A stretch of DNA of 15,345 nucleotides, from IMG/VR virus record IMGVR_UViG_2529292919_000012. The stretch is one strand, 5' to 3'. Position numbers: made by a program. Origin of the DNA: a virus (lineage: Duplodnaviria; Heunggongvirae; Uroviricota; Caudoviricetes). Positions 1 to 2,245 of the stretch are shown one piece after another (the first letter of the stretch is position 1; each line of letters begins with the position of its first letter).

Positions 1-2245
1 AATGAATACACAGTGCTTATTCGTACTAATAAAACACCCAATTTTCTGTTTCTTGGTTGTGTCCAAAGTTATATTCAATATCTGGTGTTGATGTATCAAT
101 ATTCTTCATCCCATCAACAAGAGTTGATACAACAGCCAAATCTTGTTTGATTCTCATCAAATGGTATTTCTTTCGGCGCAATAAACTTTCAATGGCAAGT
201 TTCTTCGTCGGGAATGCAAAAGATCTTTCTGCATTTTTTGCTACTTTCTTAATTGCATATCTATTTCTCCTTTGTTTCCATTCCTGTAACCACTGATTTG
301 GTGCTGGTTTAAAATTAACAATCCAATGCGCAGGAACCAACCATGCATAATGCTCTGTCTGATGAAAAGCTATATATTGAAGTGCGAATATTTTGATCCC
401 ATCTTCTTCAACTGTCGCCTGGAATCTCCAGAAAACAGGCATTCCATCATGTTCAGTTTCTGATTCAGGAAAAGGTACGCTCCATGATTTTGTCATATCT
501 CACCTCAAATAAGTGGTTTGCTGCCTAATTTCATTTTCTGGCGACCAACACAAGTCATCTTGCTGTCAGTTGTTTGGATTTCCGGTAGCCTGCCGCGTAA
601 ATGGCTACGTTTGGAAGACATACACCAGTTTCTGGTTGCTTATGTCCAAACTCATTCGCGTACACAATGGCCGCTCGCTCCAGATTGCGTCTGTATTCTT
701 TCTGTTGCCAGATCACGTCCTGTGCTATGAACTTAATTGGCTTAGCGTCTTCTATGCGCTCAGGCGTTTCGTGAGTACCTTTAGCCTGAATCTGCGCTCT
801 GCTTAGAGTAGGGCGGTGTAATACTTCTGAACTTATTGCTTCTTCGCGGGCCAGTACGCCGTTAGCTAATGCCTTTGCCTTTAAACGCTCACGACGACGA
901 GAACGTGAATTGCCTTTGAACTGAGTTCTGCGTGTCATATAGACCTCCTGATGAACTTTGGTGGTGTGGTCGGTGGGAGACCCATTTCGACCTGTTTCGG
1001 CCTACTTCAATTCGGCAATAGTCCCGCAGGCCTCGCCGCTTTACGTGCGACATATTCCCGTCCATGAACCCTTCACCACACCCCAAAGTTCACTTTGGTT
1101 ATTGCGCTTTGTCAGCGCCGTAGATTCTTGCTTGAATCGTTGTATATTCACCGCCCTGGTGAGTAGTGCGTCCTGCTGATGTGTTTAGTATCACCGACAG
1201 TGGTATTTATGTCAACACCGCCAGAGATAATTTATCACCGCAGATGGTTATCTGTATGTTTTTTATATAGATTTATTTTTTTGCAGGGGTGTGTGGCTTG
1301 GGAGGTGATCGAGAGATCTGAATTGCGATGTTTAGTGAGTTGTATCTATTAATTTTCAAATAAATACAATTGGTTATGTGTTATTGGGTGAAGGGGATCG
1401 TGAGGTAAAGAAAACCCGGCGCTGAGGCCGGGTTGTGTGTTACTTAAGAACGAGTCCGTTTAAGGCATCAAGGATTTTGGAAACATAACTTCCAAAAATG
1501 TAGGCGCAAAATGCGAACACGAAACTGACAACGACCGCAGATGCCTTGATGGTGATTTTTGCTGAGCTAATGCTTGTCTCAATACCTGACAGACGAGAAT
1601 CTACAGATTTTATATCTGACTTTACTTCAGCGAGATCGCGCTTGATGTATTCAACATCAGACTCTAGCTTTGCAACTCTAGCCTCAAGCATGTTACCTCC
1701 GCCGTTTCCTCCACCATGCCGTGAGTATGCATCATCAGTGGAATAGTGTCCAATTGGGCGAGATATGTTTTGATTTGGACGAAGCTGAGCAACCTTGTTA
1801 TCTAAACTCATCGCGAACTGATCCTGTTATCTTCACGTCAAAAAACGAACTTTTTACATCAATTACTTCGCCTTTATCAGGATTAACCAGTGATGCTCTA
1901 ACTTCGAATATCCCAGGCTTGATAATTTTCACCCTTGGGAAGTTAATTCTCATAGAAGTTGATACGATGGTTTCTCCATCGTTGGCTTCTGCTACCGTAA
2001 AAAACTTATGGTTGGAGTACAGTTTTGTGTCAATTGGTATCGGTATTTCTTGAGCATTGAAAACCTCAATGCCTATGGAATATTTTTTTGTAGCCTTAAG
2101 GCCGATAAAAAAAGCGCCAAATGATAGATCCACTTCATGGGAGTCTTTATCCATTTCATAGATAAGAACTGGAGTTACTGGGTTGCCTTCATCCATCGCA
2201 ATCGGAATGATATAAGAAATACGTTCTTTAATCATTTACGTGTTA

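Follow-up and report, generated by a model that had tools for sequence, protein, structure and literature searches.

The lambda genes of the Ral and SieB type occupy a slot of the pL operon that is distal to N. Ral is small, and the Sie proteins are membrane-associated. The gene analyzed here lies in the same kind of slot, and encodes a protein of 156 aa. It was found in the window, i.e. the whole stretch of 15,345 nucleotides of the virus record IMGVR_UViG_2529292919_000012. Like the Ral and SieB-type genes of lambda and P22, it is early, dispensable and variable among related phages. It differs from Ral and the Sie proteins in that its product is cytoplasmic, basic and of 156 aa; no sequence similarity to the Ral family was detected, and the protein gave no Pfam match above noise. 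Another point of comparison is T4 MotB, described in PMC7827196 as an early, non-essential and basic protein that improves fitness by non-specific DNA binding. The likeness to MotB would be a functional analogy alone, no relationship of sequence or fold having been detected between the two proteins.

The gene itself is not new, having been catalogued since the genomes of HK97 and 933W were sequenced. HK97 gp45, 933W L0079, vb_24B_11c of phi24B and EDL933_RS06705 are all copies of it, with 99-100% identity and in the same slot after N; the protein from the window is identical (100% aa identity) to L0079, EDL933_RS06705 and WP_000167595.1, and 99% identical to gp45. All records label the gene 'hypothetical' or 'prophage protein', and a full-text literature search by name, tag, accession and theme retrieved no functional study of HK97 gp45 or 933W L0079. 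After ~25 years in the databases, these proteins still have neither a Pfam family nor a structure. New here are a predicted orphan fold of high model confidence, the breadth of the family, the boundaries of the cassette, the inferred immediate-early timing and the link to published proteomics.

Gene position and coding signals

The original prediction was that an AT-rich gene with a good RBS and no motif that could be placed lies directly distal to N in the pL operon. The calls for the ORF, N and pL agree with this location. The features of the pL arm, all on the minus strand, are as follows.

26..496, minus strand: protein-coding gene for the 156-aa protein (ATG 496..494, TAG 28..26; phrog_1636)
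501..506, minus strand: Shine-Dalgarno sequence GAGGTG, 4 nt 5' of the ATG of the 156-aa gene, read from the sequence
497..554, minus strand: spacer of 58 nt between N and the gene, with no terminator-like hairpin or promoter-like site
555..938, minus strand: gene for the N antitermination protein, 127 aa, of the HK97/933W/H-19B type (phrog_271, E 3e-39)
1104..1170 (approximate), minus strand: nutL, transferred from the 933W annotation
1187..1215, minus strand: near-consensus pL promoter, TTGACA-17-GATACT, lying within OL operator words of the lambda type

Homologous DNA in HK97 and 933W (97-99% identical) also carries the N annotation. The nutL site was transferred through a single-piece alignment of 98.6% identity, in which positions 1-1179 of the window correspond to 4001-5179 of 933W (L009), the source nutL being at 5104-5170 of the latter. 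The RNA fold z-score of the 58-nt spacer was 0.13, its structure being no better than that of shuffled sequences. Since the spacer has neither a terminator nor a promoter, co-transcription of N and the 156-aa gene is implied. N and then the 156-aa gene follow pL on the same strand, so that on the transcript from pL the latter comes directly after N. A mosaic joint was also seen in this part of the window (1..1300 versus 1185..3260), such that a lambda-type pL/OL and immunity region drive an N of the HK97/933W type, not the lambda N.

The ORF is AT-rich, as had been predicted (36.5% GC, as compared to 48.4% in N and 45.1% in the whole window), and the GAGGTG sequence bears out the claim of a good RBS. 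An open run of at least 156 codons was found in just 1 of 2000 shuffles of positions 1-520 of the window, so that a chance open frame of this length is unlikely. The gene has 6 synonymous and no non-synonymous differences from the 933W copy, and 7 synonymous and 1 non-synonymous differences from HK97 gp45; its dN/dS, relative to a metagenomic homolog of 86% identity, is 0.18. Judged from these sequence comparisons, purifying selection acts on the gene.

Distribution and expression

The 156-aa gene is carried by 87 phage records, among them HK97, 933W and many Stx1- and Stx2-converting phages, and by 598 of 5426 complete E. coli genomes (~11%), with up to 4 copies per genome. In prophage BP-933W, EDL933_RS06705 (old tag EDL933_1363) sits between a DUF2528 (ssb/ea10-like) gene and N. 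Its RNA was increased 66.7-fold 2 h after addition of ciprofloxacin, and its protein 6.2-fold at 3 h and 8.4-fold at 12 h (PMC11125564, S1 Table). The rise in both RNA and protein shows that the ORF is transcribed and translated on prophage induction; it is a genuine phage accessory gene. Lack of translation, which had been named as an outcome that would speak against the original prediction, is contradicted by the detection of the protein by proteomics in EDL933.

The N gene beside EDL933_RS06705 is recorded in two ways. In the RefSeq entry for EDL933 (L016, NZ_CP008957.1, 7549..8421) it is a 69-nt pseudogene ('regulator, incomplete'). This conflicts with the published data, where EDL933_RS06710 is given as 'Antitermination protein N', with changes in both RNA and protein (PMC11125564).

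Transcription and the N-distal slot

In lambda, the first pL terminator is found directly 3' of N. A strong hairpin followed by a T-run (GCCCTCC-loop-GAGGGC-T6) is present in both HK97 and 933W ~100 nt 3' of the 156-aa gene, and is annotated in HK97 as a putative terminator; the interval from N to the gene is without an intrinsic terminator in both phages. Because the first intrinsic terminator comes after the 156-aa gene, with none in the interval from N to it, the product of this gene is probably immediate-early and N-independent, and made together with N at the start of infection or induction. This timing is based on scans for consensus intrinsic terminators in HK97 and 933W; the window stops 25 nt past the stop codon of the gene, and the published EDL933 expression points (2-12 h post induction) are too late to resolve the temporal class. 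A moron, with a promoter and a terminator of its own, was considered and rejected: a terminator is found 3' of the gene in HK97 and 933W, but there is no promoter-like site between N and the gene, and the atypical base composition of the gene is the one moron-like trait that fits.

The gene order is N, gp45, terminator, cIII and kil in HK97, and N, L0079, terminator, ssb, cIII, kil and gam in 933W. In E. coli EPSSH018, an unrelated ORF of 130 aa and a 'superinfection exclusion protein' come after the same N, and in Sakai Sp5, which has its own N, this place is taken by an unrelated ORF of 83 aa. The slot genes of EPSSH018 and Sp5 were compared with the 156-aa gene and rejected as divergent homologs. 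Homology to other genomes breaks at positions ~494-565 of the window, which are the borders of the gene. The slot between N and cIII is thus a variable cargo site, and the 156-aa gene an exchangeable and free-standing cassette of the early arm, with both the position and the variable presence of N-distal accessory cargo in lambdoid pL operons. That the slot distal to N is a hotspot for accessory genes had been proposed in the original prediction, and the unrelated cargo of EPSSH018 and Sp5 supports it.

Homologs were also found in other settings. A homolog of 71% identity lies directly 3' of a different, 76-aa N-like gene and beside cI. Another, of 85% identity, heads an operon in an element with ParB/KorB-like genes (L012, ENA metagenome contig, 48 kb, 825..1295); this element may be a phage-plasmid, in which case the cassette would not be limited to integrating lambdoid phages. 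In Pectobacterium, Brenneria and one metagenomic prophage, the homolog is immediately 5' of the genes for excisionase and integrase. Distant homologs are found among small early genes near RdgC, RecE/RecT, DNA methyltransferases and Lar, one is a lone gene on the opposite strand amid structural genes, and one homolog is in a Pantoea phage with no detectable integrase nearby.

At 19 loci (narrower alignments yielded 9 viral and 7 genome loci), the 145 ORFs up to four genes away from the homolog were surveyed, and no recurrent partner gene was seen. Integrases were found at 6 loci, excisionases at 3 and RecT at 2, together with assorted methyltransferases (MT-A70, C5 and Dam); Nmad5, a dGTP diphosphohydrolase and the methyltransferases are neighbours with roles in nucleotide modification. 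Orphan C5, MT-A70 or Dam methyltransferases or Lar are 1-5 genes away from several distant homologs (L003, L006/L007, L004, L017), a nearness that may merely reflect the usual content of the early arm.

Protein family and predicted structure

The protein matched the profile of phrog_1636 over its full length (E 2.7e-112, residues 1-156 of 156). This profile was matched by 73 of 73 aligned family members and that of phrog_13631 by 63 of 73; the aligned members match PHROGs 1636, 13631, 25384 and 28215 alone, all of unknown function, and no Pfam family at E values of up to 10. Searches of Pfam, NCBIfam, PADLOC and the PDB sequences gave nothing significant for the protein itself, as anticipated from the lack of a placeable motif, and homology to a housekeeping phage protein was looked for and not found. 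A PADLOC match to Cas1_II (E 0.018) was discarded as spurious, with no curated defence model being matched.

Homologs with 56-100% identity were found in Enterobacterales alone (Escherichia, Shigella, Cronobacter, Pectobacterium, Brenneria, Rosenbergiella and a Symbiopectobacterium MAG). A profile search over 1.84 billion representative proteins, with a cut-off of E<=1e-3, listed 87 representatives, a count that takes in gene fragments and two false positives. The latter, P0059 (940 aa) and P0081 (444 aa), are repeat proteins and were rejected as multi-domain relatives. Most of the relatives from this search have 130-165 aa and are just 17-27% identical to the query, and no informative domain fusions were found among them. 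The family is a divergent, single-domain one of about 130-165 aa, present in phages and prophages.

The conserved core consists of an aromatic residue followed by Arg at 23-24, Gly33, Glu/Gln46, Thr47, Lys87, Arg91/92, Lys109 and a C-terminal aromatic at 155, with Ala101 as the sole invariant residue in the alignment. R24, K87, R91/92 and K109 are the conserved basic positions. The median pI of the family is 8.9, and in 56 of 73 members the pI is >8.5. Residues 76-130 of the query are Lys/Arg-rich, with a net charge of +11, and are flanked on both sides by acidic ends; the net charge of the whole protein is just +3. By helical-wheel reasoning, some of the conserved Lys, Arg, Glu and Thr residues may be buried structural contacts and not a binding surface. 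Neither an enzymatic signature nor a membrane segment was found in the protein, nor any recognized nucleic acid-binding motif or domain in it or its relatives.

An AlphaFold2 model based on the diverse alignment of 73 sequences had a pLDDT of 95.5 and a pTM of 0.82; a model from 22 sequences of close homologs (pLDDT 61.8) was discarded. The predicted structure has three long antiparallel strands (19-30, 33-46 and 50-55) plus two short helices, and continues with a short strand (83-86), a helix of 33 residues (98-130) and an ordered C-terminal tail. A fold search of BFVD gave 13 matches at E<=1e-3, all to uncharacterized phage proteins (from phages of Erwinia, Achromobacter, Delftia, Tenacibaculum, Cellulophaga, Sinorhizobium and Rhizobium), and no counterpart to the predicted fold was found among solved structures. 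On present evidence, within the scope of the solved structures and BFVD, the modelled fold would be an orphan one, so far seen in phage and prophage proteins alone.

Two similarities to known folds were considered and rejected. A strand-helix motif ('SRFAF-TKxEA', or 'RFAF-TKxEA') suggested an AP2 or integrase arm-type DNA-binding domain, but comparison with the arm-binding domain of a lambda-type integrase using hhalign gave a probability of 0.75%. Small domains of a beta-sheet plus a helix (chromodomain, PWWP and PTB-like) are also among the closest known systems; a Chromo or Royal-family fold was dropped since no significant structural superposition was obtained.

Possible functions

The reading that we tentatively prefer, while regarding it as more doubtful than probable in itself, is that the 156-aa protein binds nucleic acid or an acidic partner stoichiometrically, as an early accessory factor. 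It would be a stoichiometric binder rather than an enzyme, because the family is basic, with a Lys/Arg-rich centre, and the protein has no conserved partner gene, enzymatic signature or membrane segment. The partner would be DNA or RNA, of the phage or of the host, or else an acidic macromolecule. The protein would condition the cell, or protect or handle phage DNA, in the role of a dispensable accessory factor and not of a core developmental function. Binding to nucleic acid would be favoured because the Lys/Arg-rich centre is conserved and the homologs sit among genes for DNA transactions, but the absence of a recognized motif, the failed test for an AP2/arm domain, the low overall charge (+3) and the possibly structural nature of the conserved polar residues count against it. 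A DNA-shielding protein would count as anti-defence too, so this reading overlaps with the next.

The original prediction also held that the gene is a candidate anti-defence or host-modulating gene. The variable slot, the early timing and the expression of the gene speak for this claim; the lack of a match to PADLOC or to a known family, and a protein that is basic and not an acidic DNA mimic, speak against it, and an anti-defence or host-modulating role is a plausible guess. A specific form of it, namely that the protein inactivates a host immune protein (of a restriction-modification, abortive-infection or other system) at the start of infection in the manner of Ral and Ocr-type proteins, whose genes have similarly early locations, is possible but rather unlikely. 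It fits an AT-rich gene of cassette-like character, at the borders of which homology breaks off, and which occupies a variable N-distal slot where sister phages house other accessory cargo and is probably expressed as immediate-early. The patchy occurrence (598/5426 complete E. coli genomes), the frequent location of homologs beside orphan DNA methyltransferases and Lar, and the presence of the same predicted fold in unrelated phages of Proteobacteria and Bacteroidota are also in line with it. The methyltransferase association may, however, mirror the general content of the early arm, the protein bears no resemblance to anything characterized, and its basic character is unlike that of an acidic DNA mimic. 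Moreover, AntiDefenseFinder flagged just methyltransferases, Ral and Gam in genomes of EHEC phages (PMC12502783), leaving the 156-aa gene unflagged although phi345 and phi367, from the same series, carry it. Since Ral and the 156-aa gene coexist in phi367, the gene is not simply a substitute for Ral.

A host-takeover factor, binding RNA polymerase, Rho, a protease, the replisome or a nucleoid protein, and maybe toxic if overexpressed, is an unlikely explanation. The protein is a stand-alone, single-domain one, expressed early beside N, Kil and CIII, all of them host-directed, and the spread of the family over many host genera would fit a conserved target; but the gene is dispensable in many lambdoid phages, and an identity of 17-27% within the family is unusual for binders of one invariant target. 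Still less is to be said for a developmental regulator that modulates the function or stability of N, or the decision for lysis-lysogeny or excision, and we consider it improbable. The gene directly follows N of two different types and, in Pectobacterium, Brenneria and one metagenomic prophage, immediately precedes the genes for excisionase and integrase; yet other homologs are far from N or excisionase (e.g., that which is alone among structural genes, and that of the Pantoea phage), and the same N functions in prophages that do not have the 156-aa gene. A small enzyme (nuclease, transferase or nucleotide-modifying) using Glu46, Thr47, Lys87 and Arg91/92 is very improbable: it would account for the few polar residues that are nearly invariant despite 17-27% identity, and for the nucleotide-modification genes among the neighbours, but the protein is small, has no predicted cofactor site and matched no catalytic fold or motif, and the conserved residues can be explained as structural.

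A bolder reading, which we hold to be conceivable rather than probable, is that the proteins form a new fold family of immediate-early effectors in phages of Proteobacteria and Bacteroidota, which, through a novel way of binding, neutralize a host defence or seize a host process. The product would then be made in Stx phages such as 933W together with N, before any other delayed-early function. If the protein is a counter-defence or takeover factor, it would bear on the host range and the induction biology of Stx phages, and represent a new effector fold; if it is a minor DNA-binding accessory protein, the finding is an ordinary one. For functional work the gene makes a well-defined candidate of medical relevance, and no unusual mechanism was shown by the analysis.

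Neighbouring features

A scan of the whole window against Rfam gave no match. Between cI and OL, where lambda has rexA and rexB, the slot is filled by two overlapping ORFs on the minus strand, followed by a hairpin.

1798..2235, minus strand: ORF of unknown function, 145 aa (phrog_5893)
1440..1811, minus strand: ORF of unknown function, 123 aa (phrog_6136)
1434..1413: terminator-like hairpin, after the ORF pair 1440..2235

The ORF pair had no Pfam match, and PADLOC gave just a weak CorA-like one (E 0.004). EPSSH018 has an ORF pair in the same position, by a LexA-family repressor; compared by position and size, its 438-nt ORF is a match and the other has 324 nt. The pair 1440..2235 is a candidate lysogenic-conversion or exclusion cassette that would be co-transcribed with cI.

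The immunity region (2243..3256) is lambda's own, with OR operator words, a Cro of lambda sequence and a cI translation that matches lambda cI. Near 2880-2890 the cI gene has a frameshift, which seems to lie in a poly-A run; the longest ORF of cI is of just 197 aa (2243..2836), and the repressor is therefore probably inactive. Within 4741..8580, the replication gene P is in two parts, with an IS21-family (IS100-like) element between them.

4741..5544: Toprim part of P
5595..6377, minus strand: istB of the IS21-family element
6374..7396, minus strand: istA of the IS21-family element
7453..8580: DnaB-like part of P

The interruption of P and the frameshift in cI mark the window as a defective prophage. 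The right part of the window (8581..15345) shares 99% identity with the nin/Q region of phage 434, including a lipid A deacylase of the LpxR family.
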